Position numbers and translations under genes: made by a program
Notes under the pieces: generated by a model
What the model was told of the DNA's origin: nothing
Database searches by the model: none
What the model saw: the letters and a program-made list of their open reading frames with translations, nothing else
Shown here: positions 44,983 to 57,073 of the stretch, piece by piece
How the letters are laid out: each line of letters starts with the position of its first letter
Position numbering within the stretch: the stretch's first letter is position 1
From: an uncultured Ectothiorhodospiraceae bacterium
Lineage (GTDB): Bacteria; Pseudomonadota; Gammaproteobacteria; Nitrococcales; Nitrococcaceae
Assembly: GCA_913056385.1 (NCBI GenBank)
Contig: CAJXND010000002.1
Location: 47,108-111,107, forward strand
DNA length: 64,000 nt
Reading direction: 5' to 3'

Positions 44983-45973
44983 TCGCTACGCCGGGTTCTG
45001 GAGTCACAATGGCGCCGGTGCGACCCTGCTTGGCCCGCTGGAATGGCTCTTCCGCCAGGCGGTTGCTCGCCGTCGGGCCCGCGCCGGCGCCATCGCACAG
45101 TGGATTGATGCACCCGTGTTGGTGGTGGGGAATGTCAGTGTCGGAGGGACCGGTAAAACGCCATTGGTGCTCTGGCTTGTCGAGACCGCCGTGGAGATGG
45201 GGTTCCGGCCCGGCATCATTCTGCGCGGCCATCGCGGCAGCGCCCGTGGCGTCATGCCGGTCACGGCTGATAGCGATCCCGGTGTCGTCGGCGATGAAGC
45301 CGTACTGCTCGCCCGGCGAGCACCATGCGCGGTCGTGATCGGCGCCGATCGCGTCGCCGCCGGTCGGACGCTGCTCAAGACCGGCGCGGTGGACCTGGTG
45401 ATCAGCGATGACGGGCTGCAGCATTATGCTTTGGGTCGCGATGTGGAGATCGCGGTTGTCGATGCAGACCGCGGCCACGGGAACGGGCGGTGCCTGCCCG
45501 CCGGGCCATTGCGAGAACCACTGAATCGCCTGGATGAGGTCGACCTGGTGTTGGGCAACGGGCAACAGATTAAAGGTTGCGGGGGAATGTTCGAGATCGT
45601 GCCCGGGCTGCTCCAGGCGCTGCCGGGGACGGACGAGGGTGGCGAACCGCCAACATCGGGCTGCGCGGTTCATGCGGTTGCCGGCATCGGTCATCCCGGG
45701 CGTTTCTTTGCCACGCTGGAGGCGATGGGATTCTTCGTCCATGCCCACCCGCTCGGCGATCACCATCATTTCCGTCCCGGGGATCTGCGCTTCGATGACG
45801 ATGCACCGGTCATCGTCACGGAGAAGGACGCGGTAAAATGTCGGGGTATGGCACCCGCGAACAGCTGGTATCTGCCTGTGGCGGCCCGGCCGGACGAGAT
45901 CACTACGGTGCGCCTCGGAGAACTGCTGGCGCTCGCCCGGCGCCGTTTCGTCAACCGCAGGGCAGGCTCATGA
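44972..45973 (+). CDS. lpxK: Tetraacyldisaccharide 4'-kinase
   Basis: VGNVSVGGTGKTP, GDEAVLL, SDDGLQHY, LPAGPLRE, TEKDAVK. Confidence 0.96.
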   Translation: MATDRYAGFWSHNGAGATLLGPLEWLFRQAVARRRARAGAIAQWIDAPVLVVGNVSVGGTGKTPLVLWLVETAVEMGFRPGIILRGHRGSARGVMPVTADSDPGVVGDEAVLLARRAPCAVVIGADRVAAGRTLLKTGAVDLVISDDGLQHYALGRDVEIAVVDADRGHGNGRCLPAGPLREPLNRLDEVDLVLGNGQQIKGCGGMFEIVPGLLQALPGTDEGGEPPTSGCAVHAVAGIGHPGRFFATLEAMGFFVHAHPLGDHHHFRPGDLRFDDDAPVIVTEKDAVKCRGMAPANSWYLPVAARPDEITTVRLGELLALARRRFVNRRAGS

Positions 45974-46725
45974 CTCCGTTCACCGTTATCATTCCGGCAC
46001 GCCACGCCTCGACGCGGCTCCCCGGCAAGCCGCTGCTTCCGCTTGCCGGTCGGCCGGTGATCGAGCATGTCTGGCGCGCGGCGGTCTCGAGTGGTGCCGA
46101 TCGCGTCATTATCGCCACGGATCATGCCGGCATCAGTGACTGCGCAACGGCCTTCGGTGCCGAGGTCTGCATGACCGGAAGCGCTCATCGGAGCGGCACG
46201 GAGCGGATTGCCGAAGTGGTGCGCGCCATCGGGATCGGCGACGACGCGATCATCGTCAATCTCCAGGGCGATGAGCCCCTCATGCCGGCCTCTCTGCTGG
46301 TCCGGGTCGCCGAGACGCTCGCCGAGGCACCGGGATCGGTGATGGCGACCCTCTCGACCCCCCTGATGGATGCTGACGAGTTGCATGACCCCCACACAGT
46401 GAAGCTGGTGACCGGGCACGATGGCCGGGCGCTTTACTTCAGCCGCGCCGCCATTCCCCGGGACCGGCGGGGGCACACGGACTGGCAGATGTCGGTGGCC
46501 CGGCGTCATCTGGGGCTCTATGCCTATCGCGCCGGGTTCCTCAGGCGTTATCCGCTGCTGCCGGAAAGCCCGCTGGAGAATCTCGAGCAACTGGAGCAGC
46601 TGCGCGTTCTGCAGGCCGGGGAACGGATCCAGGTCGGGGAGGTGACGGAGCGACCGGGGCATGGTATCGATACCGAGCGCGATCTCGCCGCCGCAGAGGC
46701 CGCGCTCATCCGACGTTCACGATAG
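45970..46725 (+). CDS. kdsB: 3-deoxy-manno-octulosonate cytidylyltransferase
   Basis: IPARHASTRLPGKPL, SGTERI, NLQGDEP, ALYFSR, HLGLYAYR, EQLEQLR. Confidence 0.97.
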   Translation: MTPFTVIIPARHASTRLPGKPLLPLAGRPVIEHVWRAAVSSGADRVIIATDHAGISDCATAFGAEVCMTGSAHRSGTERIAEVVRAIGIGDDAIIVNLQGDEPLMPASLLVRVAETLAEAPGSVMATLSTPLMDADELHDPHTVKLVTGHDGRALYFSRAAIPRDRRGHTDWQMSVARRHLGLYAYRAGFLRRYPLLPESPLENLEQLEQLRVLQAGERIQVGEVTERPGHGIDTERDLAAAEAALIRRSR

Positions 46726-46735
46726 ACCGGCCGGA

Positions 46736-47650
46736 TTACTTGCAGGCGAGGGTTTCCAGCATGCAGCGCCGGAACGCCTCGACCATCCGGCTTGCCGGGC
46801 TCGCCGTCATGCCGAGATAGAACTGCGTGGCATAAGCGTACTCGCTTGGCAGGAGCTCACGCATCAAACCGTCGCGCACCCAGTTTTCGGCGTAGTGTAT
46901 CGGCAGATAGCCGACATAGCGGCCACTGAGAATCAGCATGGCGGCACTTTCCATGTGACCGACACTGGGCCCGACGCGGCTGTCGTGGTGGCCGAGCATC
47001 GATGGGCCCTTGTAGTTCTTGTCGCAAAAGACGGCCGATTCCAGTGACTCGCGAATGGCCTCGGGATCCATTTCCTCGAATAGGGCATGGTCGCGCCCGC
47101 AATAGAGGCTCTGGACCTCCATGAACAACGAGTCGGCATTGATCGAGTCGTGCTCCGGTTCGACCGGCGTGATAATGAGGTGGTATCGATTATCGACCAA
47201 CCCCTGGGAGAGGTCTTGTGGCGATCCGATGTTAAAGTGCAAACGGACATCCGGCGCGATGTCGGCGAACCGCCTCAGGACCTCGTCGAACTGCAGCCGG
47301 TCGTAGGTAACCAGCGCGTCGACAAGACCCAGATAAAGGTCACCGGACATGTTGCCCCGGACATCCGAAATGACCTCGCGGAAACCCAAAATCGACTCGA
47401 AGAGCGGCCCGAGGCTCTCGTAGATGCGCTCTCCCTCGCGTGTCAGTGCAAAGCCCTTGCGACCGCGTTCACAGAGCGTAAAGCCGAGACGCTCCTCGAG
47501 CTGTTTGAGCTTGATGCTGATGGTCGACAGCGAGAGGCCCAGCGTCTCCTGGGCCGGGGCGAGCCCCTGCGCCTGGACAACGGCCCGGAATATCCGGAGA
47601 AGTTTGAGATCGAAATCGGTGAGGTTCGGGAGGCTCGGGTCGCTTCCCAT
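46736..47650 (-). CDS. LysR-type regulator, GbuR/GpuR-like
   Basis: DLKLLRIF HTH, LCERGRKGFALT, ILSGRYVGYLPIHYA..WV; divergent from the ABC operon. Confidence 0.92.
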   Translation of the reverse strand: MGSDPSLPNLTDFDLKLLRIFRAVVQAQGLAPAQETLGLSLSTISIKLKQLEERLGFTLCERGRKGFALTREGERIYESLGPLFESILGFREVISDVRGNMSGDLYLGLVDALVTYDRLQFDEVLRRFADIAPDVRLHFNIGSPQDLSQGLVDNRYHLIITPVEPEHDSINADSLFMEVQSLYCGRDHALFEEMDPEAIRESLESAVFCDKNYKGPSMLGHHDSRVGPSVGHMESAAMLILSGRYVGYLPIHYAENWVRDGLMRELLPSEYAYATQFYLGMTASPASRMVEAFRRCMLETLACK

Positions 47651-47915
47651 GATTGTCTGCTCCCGGTGATCGGACCCGACGGCGAGTTCTGGCCCGAATC
47701 TCCCTTGCTGCCTGTTATTTCAATATGTTGGTCATGAAGGATTCGGTCAAGCCCGCTTGCGCGTGTCGCCGTTGTCGGCCAGGCATCGCTTTGTTCGACT
47801 CCAAAGCCCGGTTTGCAAGGTGATGATGGTTGGGCGGTTGACGCGCGGAACATACTCAGGTCGTCCCTTGGCGGGATTTACATCAGAAAAGGGGCCTGGC
47901 CCCGGGGGTTCAATC

Positions 47916-48998
47916 ATGTTCGAAGTGAAGAAAACAACCCGATGGGCACTGGCAGCGATGCTCGCTGCCGCGACCATCACCGGCGTATCCACCACGGCGA
48001 CGGCGAAGGAAGAGATCAACGTGGGCGCCTGTGTATCGTGGCCGGGATATTCATTCTTTGAAGTCGTTCGTCAGCAGGACCTGGCGCCCGATTACGATAT
48101 CAACATCTCCATTTTCGAGGACCCGCTCGGCGGGCACGCGGCCCTCGCTACCGGACAGCTCGATATCTACCTCTGCACTGGTGATTACACCCCCGTGGCG
48201 GCAGCCCGGGGCCTCGATGTCACCAATGTCGCCGTTCAGAACCTCGTCTATGGCGTCGACAAGGTGGTCATCGGCCCGGATCTGGAGCCCGAGGATCTCC
48301 GCGGTCAGCGCATCGCCGCGCCCCAGGCCTACATCGGCCAGCTGGTGATGGGACTCTGGCTGGATAGCGTGGGGATCAGCCCGGATGAGGTCACATGGGT
48401 CAACCTCAATGCCGACGAGGCGGTCGGCCCCATGATGTCGGGTGATCTGGGTGCGGCCTACATGTACGAGCCCTGGGTCAATCAGGTGGTCGACAACCTC
48501 GACGGCGCACGGGTGATCGCCGACACCTCGGCACCGGAGCTCATGGAGACGGGCATCTTCATGGACGTCATGTACATGAATACCAATTTCATCGCCGAAC
48601 ACCGTCAGGCGGCGATCGACATGTTGAAGGCGCGATTCGAGGCGACGGCTTACTGGAACGAGCATACCGACGAGGTGAATCAGACCTTCGCGGACTACCT
48701 GCAGTGGTCCAAGGCGGATATCGAGTCGATCATGGGCAGCAACGGCAAGTATCTCGAGGGCGGAATGTATATGCTCGACTTCAATGAGGTCGCCAGGATC
48801 TGCGGCGTCATGGACGGAGAGCCGCCGTTCGGCATCGACAATGGCGCGATGGAGAGCATGGTCGAGCTGACCAACGAGTGGTGGATCAAGCTCGATCTGA
48901 TGGACGAAATGCTCGCCGATCCGAGCGATGCATTCGACTGCAGTCTGGTCGGGGACCTTGCCGCCCAGGGCTACCGTCAGACGTTCTCGGCGCGTTGA
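47916..48998 (+). CDS. ABC transporter substrate-binding protein, NitT/TauT (SsuA/NMT1-like) family
   Basis: Signal peptide ending ATA; SWPGY; YEPW; acidic periplasmic protein; upstream of permease and ATPase. Confidence 0.88.
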   Translation: MFEVKKTTRWALAAMLAAATITGVSTTATAKEEINVGACVSWPGYSFFEVVRQQDLAPDYDINISIFEDPLGGHAALATGQLDIYLCTGDYTPVAAARGLDVTNVAVQNLVYGVDKVVIGPDLEPEDLRGQRIAAPQAYIGQLVMGLWLDSVGISPDEVTWVNLNADEAVGPMMSGDLGAAYMYEPWVNQVVDNLDGARVIADTSAPELMETGIFMDVMYMNTNFIAEHRQAAIDMLKARFEATAYWNEHTDEVNQTFADYLQWSKADIESIMGSNGKYLEGGMYMLDFNEVARICGVMDGEPPFGIDNGAMESMVELTNEWWIKLDLMDEMLADPSDAFDCSLVGDLAAQGYRQTFSAR

Positions 48999-49068
48999 AT
49001 CCCGGGGCCAGGGACGGCCCATCCTCTCAATCCAGAATCATCATGCGAGAATGGGGCGGAGTCTCCCT

Positions 49069-49905
49069 ATGAGTCAGAATCGCCAGAATCCGGTCGGCAC
49101 CAGGGCCCAGCGGGGGCCCTGGCTGGAGTTCCTGCGGCCCATATCCACCCGCGAGAGCGCGCTGCTCGGGCTTGTGATCTGGGTCCTCTTCTTCGTCGGC
49201 TGGGAAGTCGCCGCCTGGCGGGAACTGGTGAACCCACTGCTTCTGCCGCCGCCGGAGCAGGTCCTGGTCTCGCTCTACGATCTGCTGGTGAACCGCGGCT
49301 TCGGCGTGGATATCGGCGTGAGTATCCTGCGCATCCTCGCCAGCTTCGTCGCCGCCTGCATTATTGCCATACCGCTTGGCGTCCTGATGGGCTCCTTTGC
49401 GCGCATCGAAGGACTGTTCAATCCGTTTGTCTCGGCCTGGCGCTACCTGCCGGCTCCGGCCTTCATCCCGATTCTGCTGGCCTGGTTCGGCACCGGTGAA
49501 GAACCCAAGCTGGCGTTGCTCTTCCTCGGTGTGATCTGGTTTCTGATCACGCTGGTCATGGACCATACGCGCAACGTTCGCGACGAGCTCATCGAGACCG
49601 CCATGACCCTCGGTGCGAGGCGATGGCAGGTGCTCTGGACGGTGATCGTGCCGGCGGTCCTGCCCAACATCCTGATCGCCATGCGTCAGATGCTCGCCAT
49701 CGCCTGGACCTATCTCGTGATCGCCGAGATCATCGCCGCGACGAACGGCATCGGTGCGGTCATGTGGCGGGCGCGCCGATTCCTGGATACCGACGAGATT
49801 CTCGCCGGCATCCTGGTGATCGGCGTGCTGGGACTGGCGTTCGATCTGTTGTTCCGCTGGCTCTACCGAATTCTGTTTCCCTATCTCGATCGCAACGGCC
49901 GCTGA
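49069..49905 (+). CDS. ABC transporter permease, TauC/SsuC-like
   Basis: LLPPPEQV, SILRI, PAPAFIP, EAA-like IETAMTLGA, WTYLVIAEIIAA. Confidence 0.93.
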   Translation: MSQNRQNPVGTRAQRGPWLEFLRPISTRESALLGLVIWVLFFVGWEVAAWRELVNPLLLPPPEQVLVSLYDLLVNRGFGVDIGVSILRILASFVAACIIAIPLGVLMGSFARIEGLFNPFVSAWRYLPAPAFIPILLAWFGTGEEPKLALLFLGVIWFLITLVMDHTRNVRDELIETAMTLGARRWQVLWTVIVPAVLPNILIAMRQMLAIAWTYLVIAEIIAATNGIGAVMWRARRFLDTDEILAGILVIGVLGLAFDLLFRWLYRILFPYLDRNGR

Positions 49906-49921
49906 GCCGGGGAGCGCATGC

Positions 49922-50770
49922 ATGACACTCCAGGCCCCGACAACCGCTGCCGCCCCGTCAGGACAGCCCCATCTGGCGCTGGAGGGCGTTGGCAAGGTCT
50001 TCGAGCTCCGGCGCAACGAGCACATCGAAGCCATCAAGGATGTCAGTTTCACCATGCAGGAGAACGAGGTCTGCGTGATTCTCGGCCCCTCGGGTTGCGG
50101 CAAGTCCACGGTCCTGCGGATGGTGGCGGGTCTTGAGAGCCCCAGCGCCGGCCAGCTCCTGCTGGATGGCAACCCGATTCATGGTCCGGGTCGCGAGCGG
50201 GGCATGGTCTTCCAGAGCTATACCTCGTTCGACTGGTTGACCGTGCAGGACAACGTCGAATACGGGATGCGGCTCAATGGCGCCGGCGCACGGGAGCGCC
50301 GGGAACGCGCCGCCGAGTTCATCGAGCTGGTGGGTCTGACAAAGTTCGCCAATGCCTATCCACGGCAGTTGTCGGGGGGCATGAAACAGCGCGTCGCGAT
50401 CGCAAGAACGCTGGCCAATGATCCAGCGCTGCTGCTGATGGACGAGCCCTTCGGTGCACTCGATGCGCAGACACGCTGGCATATGCAGGAGCTGATGATG
50501 AGTGTCGTGGAGTCCACGCGGACATCGGTCCTGATGGTGACGCATGATATCGAAGAGGCCATTTTCCTCGCCGACCGGATTGAGTTCATGTCGCGCCATC
50601 CGGGCAGCGTGCTGGAGGAGATCAAGCCCACGTTCAAGCAGGGGCAGCGGTTCACGCGCAAGGAACAGTTGCTCGATTTCCCCGAATACGGCGATCTTGA
50701 GCGGCACGTCATGAAACTGATGCGGCAGCAGGGCGGTGACGATGCAACACCGGCCGAGCAGGGCGCCTGA
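49922..50770 (+). CDS. ABC transporter ATP-binding protein, TauB/SsuB-like
   Basis: GPSGCGKS, LSGGMKQR, MDEPFGALD, THDIEEA. Confidence 0.95.
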   Translation: MTLQAPTTAAAPSGQPHLALEGVGKVFELRRNEHIEAIKDVSFTMQENEVCVILGPSGCGKSTVLRMVAGLESPSAGQLLLDGNPIHGPGRERGMVFQSYTSFDWLTVQDNVEYGMRLNGAGARERRERAAEFIELVGLTKFANAYPRQLSGGMKQRVAIARTLANDPALLLMDEPFGALDAQTRWHMQELMMSVVESTRTSVLMVTHDIEEAIFLADRIEFMSRHPGSVLEEIKPTFKQGQRFTRKEQLLDFPEYGDLERHVMKLMRQQGGDDATPAEQGA

Positions 50771-50801
50771 GACGATCATGGACAACAGACAGGGAGGCGG
50801 A

Positions 50802-51581
50802 ATGCCGGCAGGACCGACATGTATCTGGGAGATGACCTGGCCGGAGTTTGCCGAACAGGTGGACCGCAATCCGGTGGTCCTGCTCCCCACCGGCATGACC
50901 GAGCAGCACGGCCCCCATCTCCCGCTCGGAGTGGATTTCCAGCTTCCCCTCGCGATTGCGGATCTGGTGGCCCGGGAGATCGACGGGCTCATCGCGCCTC
51001 CGTTGCACTATGGCTACAAATCCATGCCCCGGACGGGCGGCGGGCCGGGGTTTCCTGGCTCGCTCGGGCTGGACGGCGCCACCCTCAGTGCGATCCTCCG
51101 GGATCTGATCCGCGAGCTGGCCCGCTCGGGAGTCCGGCGAATCGTGGTGCTTGACGGCCATCTGGAGAATCGCTGGTTTCTGACCGAGGGGATCGATCTC
51201 GCGGTCCGCGAGCTGGGTGAACGCTCCCCTCGCGTGGTCTGCATGCAGCACTGGGACTTTCTCGACGACGAGACCATGACAAGGGTTTTCCCGGAAGGCT
51301 ATGCCGGGATCGACAAGGAGCATGCGGCGATCCTTGAGACATCGCTGATGATGCATTTCTACCCGCAGCATGTCCGCCTCGATCGGATACCGGATGAGCC
51401 GCCGCTCGCGGCGCCGCCCTATGACACCTGGCCGGCGCGGCCTGAGTGGATCCCGCCGGGGGGTGCGCTGACCTCGGCAAAGCCGGCCACGGCGGCCAAG
51501 GGCGAATGCGTGGCGGACTGCTATCGACGCCGAATCAGCGCTGCATTGCGCGCGGAATTCGATCTGGGAGAGGGGCCATGA
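50802..51581 (+). CDS. Creatininase-family cyclic amidohydrolase
   Basis: TEQHGPH, VD, GYKS..TGGG..FPG, DGHLEN, EHAAILETS metal ligands intact; GGAGG RBS before ATG 50802. Confidence 0.93.
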   Translation: MPAGPTCIWEMTWPEFAEQVDRNPVVLLPTGMTEQHGPHLPLGVDFQLPLAIADLVAREIDGLIAPPLHYGYKSMPRTGGGPGFPGSLGLDGATLSAILRDLIRELARSGVRRIVVLDGHLENRWFLTEGIDLAVRELGERSPRVVCMQHWDFLDDETMTRVFPEGYAGIDKEHAAILETSLMMHFYPQHVRLDRIPDEPPLAAPPYDTWPARPEWIPPGGALTSAKPATAAKGECVADCYRRRISAALRAEFDLGEGP

Positions 51582-52345
51582 ACCCGGGATCACGCCATGT
51601 CCTCGTGACCGGCGCGAGTCGCGGCATTGGCCGCGGCGTGGCGGAGGCATTCGCGCGGGAAGGGCATGCGCTGACCCTGCTGGCCGACGATGAATCGGTG
51701 CATTCCGTCGCGGCGCAGATCGCCCGGGAGATCGGCGCGGAGGTCGAGGCCCGATGCTGTGACATCACCGATGCGGACGCGCTGGCCAGGGCCTTTAACG
51801 ATATCCGACCGATCGATGTGCTGATCAGTAATGCGGGGATCGAATTGCCCACGCCGCTGGATGATGGGAGCGCCGAGACGCACCGGCGTTTCGCCCGGAT
51901 TATCGATGTCAACGTGACCGGCACCTGGCAGGTCATGCGGGCCGCCCTGCCGCATCTGATGGATGGCGGGAGTGTGGTGGTGACCGCCTCGATCTGGGGG
52001 CGAACCGCCGTGCCCGGGTTTTCCGCCTATGTGGCCTCGAAGCATGCACTCATCGGCCTGACCCGGACCTGGTCCCGCGAACTTGCCGCGCGCGGCATCC
52101 GCGTCAATGCGGTCTGCCCGGGATGGGTCCGTACCGAGGCCTCGATGGCCTCACTCGACTGGATGGCCGAACAGGAGGGTCGCTCCGTGGGTGAGCTGCT
52201 CGCCGAAATCGAGGCGGGACAGAGCCTGCCCGGGCTCATGGAGCCGGACGATATCGCCGGGTTGTATGTCTATCTCGCCTCATCGGCCGCCCACGGGCTG
52301 ACCGGGCAGGCCATTCCCGTCGACCGCGGCGAGGTGATGGCATGA
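51578..52345 (+). CDS. Short-chain dehydrogenase/reductase (SDR 1)
   Basis: TGASRGIG, SNAG, AS, YVASK, VCPGWV; ATGA overlap with amidohydrolase. Confidence 0.94.
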   Translation: MNPGSRHVLVTGASRGIGRGVAEAFAREGHALTLLADDESVHSVAAQIAREIGAEVEARCCDITDADALARAFNDIRPIDVLISNAGIELPTPLDDGSAETHRRFARIIDVNVTGTWQVMRAALPHLMDGGSVVVTASIWGRTAVPGFSAYVASKHALIGLTRTWSRELAARGIRVNAVCPGWVRTEASMASLDWMAEQEGRSVGELLAEIEAGQSLPGLMEPDDIAGLYVYLASSAAHGLTGQAIPVDRGEVMA

Positions 52346-53094
52346 GCGGGCGCCTCGAGGGCATTCGGGCCGTGGTCACCGGTGGCTCGCGCGGGATCGG
52401 TCGTGCCTGTGCCATCGCCATGGCCACCGCTGGCGCGAAGGTCGTCATCATCTACCAGGGCAGCGAACAAGCGGCGACCGCGGTCGTCGACGAGATGCGC
52501 GCAATCTCACCGGGACACCGGTCACTGCGCGCCGACGTCTCCTCGGAACCGGAGGTCGTCGAGGCCATGACGACAGGCACTCGGTACCTCGGCGGGCTGG
52601 ACGTCCTTGTCAACTGCGCGGGGGTCCTCGAGGAACGACCGCTGCTGGAGACGGATGCCGCCGCCTTTGACCGGATCATCGCGGTCAATCTGCGCGGTGC
52701 GTTCCTGGTCGGTCGCGAGGCGGTACGCCACATGATGGCAGGGCCCGGGCATGGTCAGATCATCAACATCGGGTCGGATCTGGCGGATCTCGGGCGCCCC
52801 CGGAACAGCGCGTACTGTGCCTCCAAGGCAGGCATCGCCGCGCTGACACGCTGCTGGGCGCGCGAGTTCGGGCCCATGATCCGCGTCAACACCGTGGCCC
52901 CCGGACCCATCGCAACGGACATGCTGAGCGCAGAGACCATGAGCGAGGAGAGCCTTGCGGAGGAGACCCGGACTCCGCTCGGGCGGATCGGGGAACCGCG
53001 CGAGGTTGCCGACTTCGTTGTTTTTCTTGCGGGCCCGGGAGGGTCGTTCACCACCGGCCAGACGCTAGGCGTCAATGGCGGCAGCACAATGTAA
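52342..53094 (+). CDS. Short-chain dehydrogenase/reductase (SDR 2)
   Basis: TGGSRGIG, NCAG, GS, YCASK, VAPGPI, TGQTL; ATGA overlap with SDR 1. Confidence 0.94.
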   Translation: MSGRLEGIRAVVTGGSRGIGRACAIAMATAGAKVVIIYQGSEQAATAVVDEMRAISPGHRSLRADVSSEPEVVEAMTTGTRYLGGLDVLVNCAGVLEERPLLETDAAAFDRIIAVNLRGAFLVGREAVRHMMAGPGHGQIINIGSDLADLGRPRNSAYCASKAGIAALTRCWAREFGPMIRVNTVAPGPIATDMLSAETMSEESLAEETRTPLGRIGEPREVADFVVFLAGPGGSFTTGQTLGVNGGSTM

Positions 53095-53142
53095 AGCAAC
53101 GACGGCACGATCCACGCCCACCGTTACCAGGAGAGCAGTTCA

Positions 53143-54114
53143 ATGAAGCGCCCGGATTCCCATTTCCGACCCATCAGCGGCTCGGCCCTGCCACGCTTCG
53201 CGGGGCCCTCGACATTCATGCGTTTGCCCATGGTGGAGGATCCGGCGGAGGTCGATATTGCCCTGGTCGGGTTACCCTGGGACGGGGGCACGACGAACCG
53301 CGCCGGTGCGCGTCATGGCCCTCGCGAAATCCGCAATCAGTCGAGCATGATGCGCCTGGTGCATCAGGCGAGCCGCATCGCCCCCTATGATCTGTGCCGA
53401 GTGGCCGATCTCGGGGATGTTCCCGTCAACCCCATCGACCTGTCCGATACCCTCGAGCGGGCCACGGCGTTCTTCCAGCGCATCTGCGCGGCTGGCGCCA
53501 CACCACTCACGGCCGGTGGCGATCATCTGGGATCGTTGCCCGCGCTCCGCGCGGTAGCCGCCCAGCGCCCGGTCGGCCTGGTGCAGTTCGACTCGCATTC
53601 CGATACCAACGACAGCTATTTTGGCGAAGCCAATCGCTTTACCCATGGAACGCCGTTCCGACGGGGCATCGAGGAAGGGCTGCTCGACCCGAAGCGGATG
53701 GTTCAGATCGGCATCCGCGGATCACTCTATTCCGAATCCGATCTCGACTACGCCCTTGAGCAGGGCATTCGTGTGATCGAGATAGAGGAGTACTTTGATC
53801 TCGGGGTTGAGGCGGTCATCGCCGAAATCCATCGTGTCATCGGCACCGGACCGGTCTACGCGACGTTCGATGTCGATGTGCTTGATCCCGTCTATGCGCC
53901 GGGCACGGGAACGCCGGAAGTCGGCGGGATGAGCACGGTCGAGGCGCAGCGGCTGCTGCGGGGTCTGCATGGGCTCGATGTGGTGGGTGCGGATGTCATG
54001 GAGGTGTCGCCTCCATTCGACTCCGGTTATCTCACGGCACTCACCGGCGCCACGATGCTCTTCGAGCTGCTCTGCGTCCTGGCAGGCGCCATCGCCGACC
54101 GCCGCGGTCGCTGA
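53143..54114 (+). CDS. Ureohydrolase (agmatinase family), 3-guanidinopropionase GpuA-like
   Basis: PRFAG, PWDGGTTNRAGARHGPREIR, GGDH, DSHSD, HGTPF, FDVDVLDP, EVSP; closely resembles P. aeruginosa GpuA as recalled. Confidence 0.92.
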   Translation: MKRPDSHFRPISGSALPRFAGPSTFMRLPMVEDPAEVDIALVGLPWDGGTTNRAGARHGPREIRNQSSMMRLVHQASRIAPYDLCRVADLGDVPVNPIDLSDTLERATAFFQRICAAGATPLTAGGDHLGSLPALRAVAAQRPVGLVQFDSHSDTNDSYFGEANRFTHGTPFRRGIEEGLLDPKRMVQIGIRGSLYSESDLDYALEQGIRVIEIEEYFDLGVEAVIAEIHRVIGTGPVYATFDVDVLDPVYAPGTGTPEVGGMSTVEAQRLLRGLHGLDVVGADVMEVSPPFDSGYLTALTGATMLFELLCVLAGAIADRRGR

Positions 54115-54122
54115 GCCGGGCA

Positions 54123-54152
54123 TAGCGGACGGGGCCCGTACCCCATCCGCTA
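54123..54152. terminator. Hairpin between convergent ureohydrolase and rne stops
   Basis: TAGCGGA-C-GGGG...CCCC-A-TCCGCTA, 11 bp; weak U-tract. Confidence 0.45.
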
Positions 54153-54164
54153 CACGACGCGGAA

Positions 54165-56735
54165 TCAGTCAGCGCCGGGCTGTTCCTCCGCGGAATCCCC
54201 ATCGGCCGATGCCGCTGGCAGACGCGGCCTTCCCGGCCAGCGCCGGGGATCATCCGTTCTGACAGAGCGGGTCGCCGGGGCGTCCTCGGCCTCCTTCGAT
54301 GCGCTGATCTCCGCGGATTCACTGGTGCTGGCAGTCTCAGGCTTACGACTCCGTCCGTTGGACCGGCGCCGTGTCCGGCTGCGGGATTTCTGCGCCCCGT
54401 CATCATCCGCCACGGTCTTGCTCGCGTCGGGTCGCTCCGGCTCGGGCGTTGCTGCTTTCTCTGCCTCTTCTACCGCATCGGCCGCCTGAGCCTCCGGCCC
54501 GCCCTCATCAACCGTTGCCGAGCCGCCTGTCTCGGTGCTCTGGCCATTGCCGCTGCGACGACGTCGACGCCCGCCGCGCCGACCACGACGGCTCCGGGAA
54601 CCGCTCCCGGTACCGGCCGCCGAAGCGGACTGACGACCCTCGGGAGCCTCGGCAGAGGCCTTCTCGGCATGCCCGGCGGATATTCCGTTCGGCCCGGCAT
54701 CATCGGTCTTTTGCGTTCCTTCCGCCGCAGCACGGGCGTTCTCGCCATCCGCCCGTCCGCCGGTAGCCTTGCCATTACCGCTGGTCGAGGTACGCGAGCG
54801 CCGCTGACCACCGCGGCGGCCACTCTGGCCATTGCCACCGCTACTGCCGCTCCGGCGGCGGCGGTCGCCGCTCCCGCGGGTGCGCTCACGCGATTCACCG
54901 TCGCCGCCGCCGCTGGACGGCGCAGTCTCTGTCTCGGCCGGCGTGGCCTTGCCATCGGTCGACGCCTTGCCGGTCGTCTCGGCTTCGCCACTGACCAGGC
55001 GCTTGAGCCAGCCGATCAGGCCCGGTCCACGGTCCGCTTCGGCGGCAGCGCCGTTCCCGGAAACGATTGAGGCGCTGGTGGCCGGCGCGCTCTCGGCCGG
55101 GGCGCTCTCGGCCCTGGGCGTTGGGGTCGGAGCCGGCGTGGCCGGACTGACGCCGCTCACCACCGGCTTCTCGGCGCGGGGACGTTCCGCCGTCAGCAAT
55201 TCCTCCGCGCGACTCGGCTGACCGTCCTCACCGGCCATCTGATAACTCGTCTCGGTCTCGGTCTCCTCATCCGTACGCACCCGCTGCAGCTCGTAGTGCG
55301 GCGTTTCCAGGTTGCGATTGGGGATGAGGATGACGTCGATCCCGTTGCGGGTCTCGATGGTGTCGAGGATGCCCCGCTTTTCGTTCAGCAGGAAAGTGGC
55401 CACATCAACCGGCAGCTGCGCGACCACCTTGCCGGTTTTGTCCTTCATGGCCTCTTCCTCGATGATCCGCAGCACCGAGAGGGCCAGCGATTCCACGCTG
55501 CGCACCGTCCCCTGGCCGCTGCAGCGGCTGCAGAGCTCGAGGGAGGATTCGCCGAGAGAGGAGCGCAGGCGCTGGCGCGACATCTCGAGCAGGCCGAACC
55601 GGGAAATCCGGCCAACCTGGACACGCGCCCGGTCCTGCTTGACCGCCTCGCGCAGCCGGTTTTCAACCTCCCGCTGGTTCCGGTTGGGGCCCATGTCGAT
55701 GAAGTCGATCACGATCAGGCCGCCAAGATCGCGCAGGCGCAGTTGGCGGGCGATCTCCTCGGCGGCTTCGACATTGGTCTTGAGTGCGGTCTCCTCGATG
55801 TCCGCGCCCTTGGTGGCGCGGGCGGAGTTGATGTCGATCGAGATCAGCGCTTCGGTATGGTCGATGACGATCACGCCACCGCTGGGCAGCCGGACCTCGC
55901 GCTGGAAGGCCGATTCGATCTGGCTCTCGATCTGATAGCGGCTGAACAGCGGCACCTTGTCATCGTAGAACTTGAGCTTCTGCAGGTTGTGGGGCATCAC
56001 CTGCTGGACGAACTCACGAGCGCGCTCGTAGACATCGCGGTCATCAATGAGGATTTCGCCGATATCCGAGCGCAGGTAGTCGCGCAGGGCCCGGATGATG
56101 ACATTGCTCTCCTGGTAGATCAGGAAGGGCGCCGACCGGGTCTCCGCCGCCTTCTGCACGGCGCTCCAGAGATTGCGCAGGTAGTCCAGATCCCACTGCA
56201 GCTCCTCGGCATTGCGCCCGACGCCGGCGGTGCGCACGATCAGGCCCATGCCCTCCGGCACATCGAGTTCCTTGAGCGCGTCGCGGATCTCGTTGCGCTC
56301 GGGCCCCTCGATGCGCCGCGAGACGCCGCCGGCCCGCGGATTGTTGGGCATCAGGACCAGGTAGCGGCCAGCGAGGCTGATGAAAGTGGTCAGTGCAGCG
56401 CCCTTGTTGCCGCGCTCCTCCTTCTCCACCTGGACCACGACCTCGAGGCCTTCCTTGATGACATCGGCGATCGACGCCTTGGCAGGATCGATATCGCCAC
56501 TGAAGTACTCGCGGGCGATCTCCTTGAAGGGCAGAAAGCCGTGGCGCTCCGCACCGTACTGGACGAAGGCGGCCTCGAGGCTGGGCTCGACCCGCGTGAT
56601 CCGTCCCTTGTAGATGTTGGCTTTTTTACGTTCCCGTGCCGGTGTCTCGATATCCAGGTCGTAGAGTGACTGGCCGTCGACCAGTGCAACGCGCAGCTCT
56701 TCGGGCTGGGTTGCATTGACGAGCATTCTTTTCAT
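54165..56735 (-). CDS. rne: Ribonuclease E
   Basis: [42 protein letters not shown], Zn-link CSRCSG, membrane helix GLIGWLKRL, Arg-rich disordered CTD. Confidence 0.98.
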
Positions 56736-57073
56736 GCCGAAATGATCTCCGGCGTCTGCCCCGGGTGTCCGCGCATGCGTCATGCTGGCCGGCGCAGCGC
56801 CAGTGGAGACTGGCGAGCGTCAACGGCAGGAGCGCCTTTTGGAAGGGCTCTGGGAAGCAACTGATTCGCAGGATCGCAAGACCCGTCATGGGGTGTCCAA
56901 TTGCGGGCGCCAGGGCAGGCGCGTTGTCAGGTTGAATTTTTTCATCGTACCGGACGACGACCGCAGGCCGCCGCCCGTGCAGCATTCTTTCCCGTCCGGC
57001 AGGGAGCGCACCCGTACGCGCCTCTCACCCGCCGAATCCCGGAGAGTGTAGCAATTTGCTGTTAATGCGTCCA
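56736..57073 (-). promoter_or_regulatory. rne promoter and ~300-nt 5' leader
   Basis: Minus strand TGGACG (57068-57073), 17 nt, extended -10 TGcTACACT (57045-57050); ~300 nt to ATG. Confidence 0.55.

Follow-up and report, generated by a model that had tools for sequence, protein, structure and literature searches.

A horizontally acquired gene cassette in Spiribacter, and a candidate pathway in it for the catabolism of a guanidine compound

We analyzed a 64,000-nucleotide stretch of DNA ("the window") from an uncultured Ectothiorhodospiraceae bacterium of the genus Spiribacter (contig CAJXND010000002.1, positions 47,108 to 111,107), and in particular a cassette of eight genes that might encode the catabolism of a guanidine compound. 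A LysR-type regulator with HTH_1 and LysR_substrate domains (46736..47650, minus strand) is separated by a 265-bp divergent promoter/operator region (47651..47915) from seven genes on the plus strand. The first three of these encode an ATP-binding cassette (ABC) importer: a periplasmic substrate-binding protein (SBP) of the NMT1/SsuA-like type, with NMT1 and NMT1_2 domains and a signal peptide (47916..48998); a TauC-like permease with a BPD_transp_1 domain (49051..49905, with an uncertain start at 49051 or 49069); and a TauB-like ATPase with an ABC_tran domain (49922..50770). Next come CRN, a creatininase-family metal amidohydrolase that matches PF02633 and TIGR04448 (50802..51581), and two short-chain dehydrogenases/reductases (SDRs) with adh_short domains. 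SDR1 (51578..52345) is probably NAD-dependent and has an unusual E/W/F pocket, which we describe below, and SDR2 (52342..53094) is the usual SDR neighbor of CRN across the SDR-linked loci. The last gene is ARG, a GpuA-type ureohydrolase with the arginase fold and the Arginase Pfam domain (53143..54114). Profile searches with Pfam and NCBIfam support the families of all eight genes. A sequence-only reading of this DNA had described a divergent LysR and seven co-oriented genes, and we found all eight where it had placed them. It had also described several 4-bp overlaps; these are real (ATGA stop/start overlaps), but there are just two, CRN/SDR1 and SDR1/SDR2, and the remaining gaps are 16–70 nt. 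A ribosome-binding site (GGGAGG) lies 5 nt 5' of the start of CRN.

Relatives of these genes were gathered by scanning genome collections and metagenomes, by exact-protein look-ups, and by genome searches. The order SBP-permease-ATPase-CRN-SDR1-SDR2-ARG is also found in Modicisalibacter ilicicola, Oricola nitratireducens, Roseibium aggregatum, a sister Spiribacter, and a metagenome contig. One Halomonadaceae-like genome has the full identical order, and a second agrees as far as SDR2, where its contig stops. (Just one useful locus came from searching metagenomes with CRN as the only query.) Thus, the synteny check that had been suggested for this locus showed that the combination of CRN, two SDRs, a ureohydrolase, and the importer is conserved in distant taxa, and because the same gene set recurs there in the same or nearly the same order, it is not a chance arrangement. 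More broadly, SDR1 orthologs form over 100 clusters (grouped at 90% identity), most of them from uncultured samples, and the named carriers are Halomonadaceae, Roseibium, Oricola, Hyphomicrobium, Parvibaculum, and Allorhizobium. The regulator of the operon is a LysR in M. ilicicola and a TetR in O. nitratireducens and R. aggregatum, and LysR proteins that are 60–62% identical to the window's regulator flank the same operon in the Halomonadaceae-like genomes.

The cassette lies between kdsB (45970..46725, plus strand) and rne, which encodes RNase E (54165..56783, minus strand); these genes form its left and right borders and are not part of the system. Five relatives lack the cassette, and in them the convergent rne comes right after kdsB. 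In the window's genome and in the sister Spiribacter, eight genes are inserted exactly between the two, at the same site, and in the window the borders are tight: 10 bp to kdsB (46725-46736) and 50 bp to rne (54114-54165). CRN is carried by just 2 of the 20 genomes of the genus. Also, the G+C content is 62–63% over the first half of the cassette (46–50 kb), versus 64–69% for most of the window, and apart from 18–22 kb this is the lowest in the window. Because of the exact insertion, the rare occurrence, and the lower G+C content, we conclude that the 7.4-kb cassette is horizontally acquired and accessory. Neither border has an integrase, a tRNA, or any other gene for mobility, though no search was made for repeats there. 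SDR1 is 89% identical to a protein from Spiribacter onubensis. In two other copies of the operon, tRNA genes are nearby: one is ~150 bp from the Modicisalibacter copy (L081:13516-13589), and another is ~1.6 kb from the SBP gene in the copy carried by the Halomonadaceae-like genome G400 (L095:7313-7385). These may be sites of island integration in those organisms. The host genome is 1.95 Mb and 98.8% complete, and it encodes a urease. That a genome-streamlined bacterium from salterns has recently gained this cassette suggests that its substrate is a real nitrogen source in the environment.

CRN is similar to characterized creatininases. It matches PF02633 at 187 bits and TIGR04448, which is NCBI's equivalog model for creatininase, at 314 bits (the cut-off is 235), and it aligns with Pseudomonas putida CrnA from the PDB at ~240 bits and ~50% identity. 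The metal ligands and the catalytic histidine are present (E34, H36, D45, H120, E122, H178, and E183 in P. putida numbering), and so are the creatinine-site residues E122, W154, D155, D175, and H178. Nevertheless, CRN appears to be a paralog of the true creatininases and not a creatininase, because it belongs to a separate clade and because changes in its pocket track the clades. In a tree of 42 sequences, P. putida CrnA and the enzymes that are linked to creatinase and sarcosine oxidase form one clade (support 94/89), while the window's CRN belongs to another clade, which contains SDR-linked genes only (100/100). Position 174 (P. putida numbering) is tryptophan in the creatinase-linked enzymes and isoleucine in the window's clade, and position 179 is glycine in the former and alanine in the latter. 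Similarly, methionine or glutamine at position 125 gives way to tryptophan, and tyrosine or phenylalanine at position 121 gives way to leucine, phenylalanine, or tyrosine (leucine in the window). The P. putida PDB entry in our alignment is a mutant, but residue 174 of wild-type P. putida CrnA is tryptophan, and the other nine sequences from the creatinase-linked clade all have tryptophan in this column. D/E175 is kept in almost all of the arginase-linked members of the family and is replaced by alanine in the pseudomonad type. The separate clade and the changed pocket agree with the proposal, in the sequence-only reading, that the pathway is for a guanidine other than creatinine.

These results bear on whether the operon is simply for the use of creatinine. 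If so, then CRN would be a true creatininase, ARG would stand in for creatinase by hydrolyzing creatine (which gives sarcosine plus urea), and the roles of the SDRs would be accessory. The TIGR04448 score, the ~50% identity to CrnA, and the full set of catalytic residues all favor this explanation, and so does the urease in the host genome. Also, two Halomonadaceae-like genomes with the operon, G246 and G400, encode creatinase elsewhere (G246:C1:681536-682729 and G400:C1:150490-151677, which are 59% identical to the Arthrobacter enzyme) and have no homolog of creatininase besides the CRN of the operon. Still, we think it is quite unlikely that creatinine is the substrate, given that CRN lies outside the creatinase-linked clade, that its pocket is altered at positions 121, 125, 174, and 179, and that two conserved SDRs would be left unexplained. 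Creatinase and sarcosine oxidase had been reported to be missing from the window, which was borne out, and they are absent from the 98.8%-complete genome as well (its Creatinase_N proteins and M24 matches score far below the level of orthologs). We know of no arginase-fold enzyme that accepts creatine, and a related guanidino-acid hydrolase from humans rejects it (PMC9772407).

ARG matches PF00491 at 290 bits, and its motifs GGDHLG, DSHSD, and DVDVLDP align with the motifs that bind manganese in GpuA (GGDH, DxHxD, and DxDxxD). It is most similar to the guanidinopropionase GpuA from Pseudomonas aeruginosa (3NIP; 467 bits and 65.5% identity), and scores are lower against the guanidinobutyrase GbuA (3NIO; 320 bits and 48.2% identity) and against SpeB (199 bits). 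In a phylogenetic tree, the ureohydrolases from these clusters group with GpuA, and GbuA is on a separate branch (support 100/100). The sequence-only reading had called this enzyme GpuA-like, and this label stands: it is GpuA-type and not GbuA-type. Because ARG is GpuA-type by both score and tree, its substrate is likely to be a short guanidino acid. A very divergent paralog of creatininase, with tyrosine in the column of H178, was seen in another gammaproteobacterium (L102:9120-12641); it adjoins a LysR gene and a ureohydrolase that is GbuA-type, not GpuA-type. In an uncultured proteobacterium, two tandem creatininase-family genes lie right after an ABC ATPase gene (L012:10001-11553).

Both SDRs have the TGxxxGxG cofactor motif and the Ser-Tyr-Lys catalytic residues. 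The best structural relative of SDR1 in the PDB is 9FE6/9FEB, and a text search of the literature for these entries gave irrelevant matches only. The best relative with a name is D-3-hydroxybutyrate dehydrogenase. In the enzyme from Pseudomonas fragi, Q94, H144, K152, and Q196 bind the carboxylate of the substrate; the matching residues of SDR1 are E, W, F, and S. We considered 3-hydroxybutyrate dehydrogenase as the function of SDR1 and rejected it, as the four carboxylate-binding residues are replaced and the match to TIGR01963 (179 bits) is under the cut-off of 307 bits. Many orthologs of SDR1 are named "3-hydroxybutyrate dehydrogenase" in public databases, and because all four of the substrate-binding residues are replaced, this name is very likely wrong. 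The E, W, and F occur without exception in the 121 aligned sequences (the window's SDR1 and 120 orthologs), and an acidic residue that closes strand β2 is found in 115 of the 121. The anion site seems to have turned acidic and aromatic, as would be expected if the carbinol that reacts is two or three atoms away from a guanidinium group in the substrate.

The models nearest to SDR2 are FabG, glucose-1-dehydrogenase, and rhamnose 1-dehydrogenase or other sugar lactol dehydrogenases, and all of these matches are below the cut-off. In all 22 of the cluster-linked sequences of SDR2, including the window's, an aspartate or glutamate directly follows the catalytic serine. The acidic features of SDR1 and SDR2 are found in none of the ~16 other SDR paralogs of the host genome. 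Judging from these alignments, the acidic pocket residues of both SDRs would suit a cationic substrate.

The creatininase family also contains IolN, a 3-dehydro-scyllo-inosose hydrolase that acts after two dehydrogenases. If CRN had an IolN-type role, then the two SDRs would oxidize a cyclitol or a guanidino-cyclitol to a 1,3-diketone and CRN would open the ring by cleaving a carbon-carbon bond. CRN does have a weak match to the IolN model, but the score is 67 bits, as compared to a cut-off of 245 bits and to 314 bits for the creatininase model, and we rejected this as the main explanation on account of that score. Furthermore, all five creatinine-site residues are kept, and the transporter is not of the sugar type. 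An IolN-type reaction seems highly improbable.

We also rejected the idea that the importer is TauABC or SsuABC, for taurine or other sulfonates, as no component reaches the curated scores. The SBP scores 80 bits against SsuA_fam (cut-off 163) and 47 bits against the taurine model (cut-off 304); the permease scores 161 bits against the TauC model (cut-off 342); and the ATPase scores 241 bits against the model for taurine ATPases (cut-off 357). The SBP is below the cut-offs of SaoX and of the urea/guanidine-type models too, and its sole relative in the PDB is TauA (E = 1e-6). No NCBIfam equivalog matches the window's LysR at its cut-off. Between 46000 and 55000, there is no match to an Rfam riboswitch at E ≤ 1, and a scan of the 265-bp intergenic region for promoters and terminators found one weak sigma-70-like site on the minus strand.

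Variants of the operon show which parts of the system are constant: the importer and both SDRs are retained, and other parts change. A variant from the Rhizobiales (L008) has the importer and SDR1-SDR2-CRN followed by two arginase-fold genes, while variants from Hyphomicrobium and Parvibaculum (L010 and L108) have SDR1-SDR2-CRN followed by a DUF1989 gene and a gene similar to DDAH or amidinotransferases. In a variant from Salipiger, a flavin monooxygenase is added and ARG is absent. The alternative end modules are all putative guanidino-group enzymes. One metagenome-derived genome (L109:9001-12945) retains DUF1989, the DDAH-like gene, and both SDRs, and a CE4 hydrolase (polysaccharide deacetylase family) takes the place of CRN. 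This hydrolase's best match, though a weak one, is to the allantoinase PuuE. It appears that an unrelated enzyme has taken over the opening of the ring, and the replacement of CRN by a PuuE-like protein points to the hydrolysis of a cyclic amide. Across the variants, SDR2 and CRN are a recurring core, and the upstream oxidizing enzyme varies: it may be SDR1, a fatty-acid-desaturase-like enzyme, or a luciferase-like monooxygenase. We also considered a link to β-alanine via MmsA, as there is an aldehyde dehydrogenase beside the L008 cluster, but its score for the MmsA model is 231 bits, where the cut-off is 448; it is not MmsA-like and therefore gives no support for a β-alanine route.

We propose that the operon is for the catabolism of a guanidine compound other than creatinine, via an acylguanidine ring and the release of urea, and we would put the chances of this at roughly even. 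A specific scheme for the SDRs, with an alcohol being oxidized to a hemiaminal and then to a cyclic acylguanidine, is more tentative and could easily be wrong. The analysis shows the gene set, how conserved and mobile it is, that CRN is a paralog, that ARG is placed with GpuA, and that the classical creatinine route is absent; what the substrate is, in which order the steps occur, and what each SDR does are our inferences. We suggest that the SDRs act before the ring is opened, on a cationic guanidino alcohol or hemiaminal, because of their invariant acidic pockets and because of the conserved core of SDR2 and CRN. More generally, we arrived at the scheme because of this core, the swappable upstream oxidizing enzyme, and a downstream enzyme that always seems to act on guanidino groups. 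In the proposed scheme, the NMT1-type ABC system would import a small cationic guanidine compound, and SDR1 would use NAD+ to oxidize a hydroxyl that is two or three atoms from the guanidinium. The simplest substrate would be an ω-guanidino alcohol such as 3-guanidinopropanol or 2-guanidinoethanol. The resulting guanidino aldehyde would close on its own guanidine nitrogen to give a cyclic hemiaminal, so a ring hydrolase, instead of an aldehyde dehydrogenase, would be required. There is a chemical precedent for this step, in that hemiaminals of guanidine are unusually stable and long-lived (PMC12508155). SDR2 would oxidize the hemiaminal to a cyclic acylguanidine, which could be glycocyamidine or the six-membered 2-amino-5,6-dihydropyrimidin-4-one; CRN would hydrolyze the ring amide to give guanidinoacetate or 3-guanidinopropionate; and ARG would split the guanidino acid into urea and glycine or β-alanine. 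The host's urease could then free ammonia from the urea, and the LysR would control the operon, presumably for nitrogen scavenging. We favor the six-membered ring and 3-guanidinopropionate, because ARG is GpuA-type and because CRN has lost the bulky W174 and Y121, but a five-membered ring and guanidinoacetate are equally allowed.

Several observations weigh against this proposal. CRN does pass the creatininase equivalog model, so it could have residual or full activity on creatinine, and the gain of W125 could offset the loss of W174 and keep the pocket at the size of creatinine. The creatinase genes of G246 and G400 could have the same implication. The support for the wider SDR-linked clade of CRN is moderate (85/65). 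The argument from the pockets of the SDRs comes from an alignment to one solved relative. The order of the genes in this operon, with CRN before the SDRs, says nothing about the order of the reactions. Also, we know of no report of ω-guanidino alcohols in hypersaline waters.

Alternatively, in the order of the sequence-only reading, a preformed cyclic acylguanidine could be imported, with CRN acting first; the SDRs would either reduce isocytosine beforehand or oxidize a hydroxyl group of the ring-opened product ahead of the ureohydrolase. Candidate substrates would be glycocyamidine, 5,6-dihydroisocytosine, a hydroxylated analog, or isocytosine. CRN is the first enzyme gene past the transporter genes, the GpuA-type ARG fits with 3-guanidinopropionate as the product of CRN, and NMT1-type binding proteins include some that bind pyrimidines. 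However, this route would not need the two SDRs, although every variant of the guanidino type retains them, even when a CE4 protein replaces CRN. Also, the acidic pockets of the SDRs fit a cation, while a ring-opened guanidino acid is a zwitterion, and we are not aware of a precedent for the reduction of the C5=C6 bond of a pyrimidine by an SDR. We consider this alternative to be unlikely.

A separate line of evidence for a link to guanidine comes from guanidine-I riboswitches. The sister group to this group of CRN proteins, from pseudomonads and other Gammaproteobacteria, sits in larger operons. When complete, these begin with an SBP, a fatty-acid-desaturase-like protein, an SDR2-like protein (and sometimes an SDR1-like protein as well), EamA, and CRN, and continue with a BiuH-like isochorismatase, a lactonase with the metallo-β-lactamase fold, a permease, and an ATPase. 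An Rfam scan found guanidine-I riboswitches directly upstream of four of these SBP-first loci (L003:5334-5435, L005:5802-5906, L096:6395-6494, and L099:14544-14642 on the minus strand), with scores of 72–92 bits as compared to a gathering score of 63. The four loci are from Stutzerimonas, Phytopseudomonas, and two other Gammaproteobacteria. Two recent reviews on guanidine make no mention of creatininase-family or SDR genes in the guanidine riboswitch regulon. One possibility is that these riboswitch-led operons encode a formaldehyde-free route for the oxidation of methylguanidine or alkylguanidines. Among the loci of close orthologs that we scanned, we found no riboswitch on operons of the window's type.

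In Roseibium aggregatum, the operon is flanked on both sides by other gene clusters (L107, 1-4455 and 11540-18780), and together they form an island for scavenging nitrogen-rich compounds. On one flank is a guanidine-I-riboswitch operon with a TIGR03427-type SBP, a 2-oxoglutarate oxygenase, ABC genes, and a 412-residue protein of the arginase family; it resembles a recently described system for demethylating methylguanidine (PMC12508155). On the other flank is a cluster of AtzE/G/H-like, isochorismatase, and nitrilase genes.

The riboswitches bear on another alternative, in which the acylguanidine is linear. SDR2 would oxidize an open-chain N-(1-hydroxyalkyl)guanidine to an N-acylguanidine, CRN would hydrolyze this to an acid and free guanidine, and ARG would act on some other co-substrate. 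The creatininase family includes deformylases, and the riboswitches that control the related SDR-CRN operons are specific for free guanidine. Also, guanidine hemiaminals are known to be unusually stable, long-lived intermediates (PMC12508155). On the other hand, the window has neither a riboswitch nor an oxygenase that could form such a hemiaminal, ARG is GpuA-type instead of the guanidinase type with 390–412 residues, and SDR1 would have no role. So, we view a linear acylguanidine as very unlikely for this operon.

Returning to the cyclic scheme, we speculate that SDR2 and CRN form a general module that has not been recognized, with a guanidine-hemiaminal dehydrogenase and an acylguanidine amidohydrolase. 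With exchangeable front and back ends, this module would oxidize N-alkyl or hydroxyalkyl guanidines without releasing an aldehyde. The front ends would be SDR1 as an alcohol dehydrogenase, a membrane di-iron hydroxylase, or a flavin monooxygenase, and the back ends would be a GpuA-type ureohydrolase, the pair of DUF1989 and DDAH-like proteins, or a BiuH-like amidase. In the window, the module would turn guanidino alcohols into guanidino acids by way of a cyclic lactam. We regard such a module as possible but doubtful. If it does exist, then the riboswitch-controlled versions would be a branch of the guanidine regulon that is yet to be described.

The sequence-only reading knew of no characterized pathway with this set of genes, and we did not find a published description of the set either, in open PubMed Central and bioRxiv. 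The system would be a form of guanidino-compound catabolism made up of known families of enzymes, and in many genomes the labels creatininase, agmatinase, and 3-hydroxybutyrate dehydrogenase are probably wrong for these genes. The study of guanidine metabolism has grown quickly since guanidine riboswitches were described, but where most substituted guanidines come from in nature, and what becomes of them, is obscure. Solving this pathway would give new enzyme activities and might supply a gene for guanidino-acid hydrolase activities that are orphans; it would also assign a function to genes downstream of guanidine-I riboswitches that have lacked an explanation.

It is useful to compare this system to known pathways. 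The classical creatinine pathway of P. putida and Arthrobacter, with CrnA (EC 3.5.2.10), creatinase, and sarcosine oxidase, involves the same family of amidohydrolases with the same metal-binding and catalytic residues, and urea is among its products. (Our comparison locus was L014 from Arthrobacter, which has the full classical set.) In contrast, the window has no creatinase or sarcosine oxidase, its CRN belongs to another clade, and urea would be released by an arginase-fold enzyme. The window also adds two SDRs, and it has an NMT1-type ABC importer instead of NCS1 or BCCT carriers. The gpuPAR and gbuA-gbuR systems of P. aeruginosa share with the window a ureohydrolase (GpuA is 65.5% identical to ARG), a LysR regulator, which is divergent in the window, and the expected output of urea and an amino acid. 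However, P. aeruginosa imports the guanidino acid directly, by a symporter, while the window has three extra enzymes ahead of the ureohydrolase, which suggests that the guanidino acid would be made inside the cell.

The third comparison is to MgdH-MgdL, the methylguanidine hydroxylase and lyase from the guanidine-riboswitch regulon of Vreelandella boliviensis (PMC12508155). That regulon and the window's operon share NMT1-type ABC importers, halophilic hosts, and, as we propose for the window, the chemistry of stable guanidine hemiaminals. Unlike MgdH-MgdL, the window has no riboswitch or oxygenase, the hemiaminal would be oxidized instead of fragmented, and the urea would come from a guanidino acid instead of free guanidine. 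Finally, the proposed steps are similar to the pairs of sugar 1-dehydrogenases and lactonases that act on glucose or L-rhamnose: in each case, an SDR would oxidize a ring that is closed as a hemiacetal or hemiaminal, and the oxidized ring would then be opened by a hydrolase. In the window's version, the heteroatom in the ring would be a nitrogen from guanidine, the hydrolase is from the creatininase family, and SDR2 scores below the curated cut-offs for the sugar dehydrogenases.

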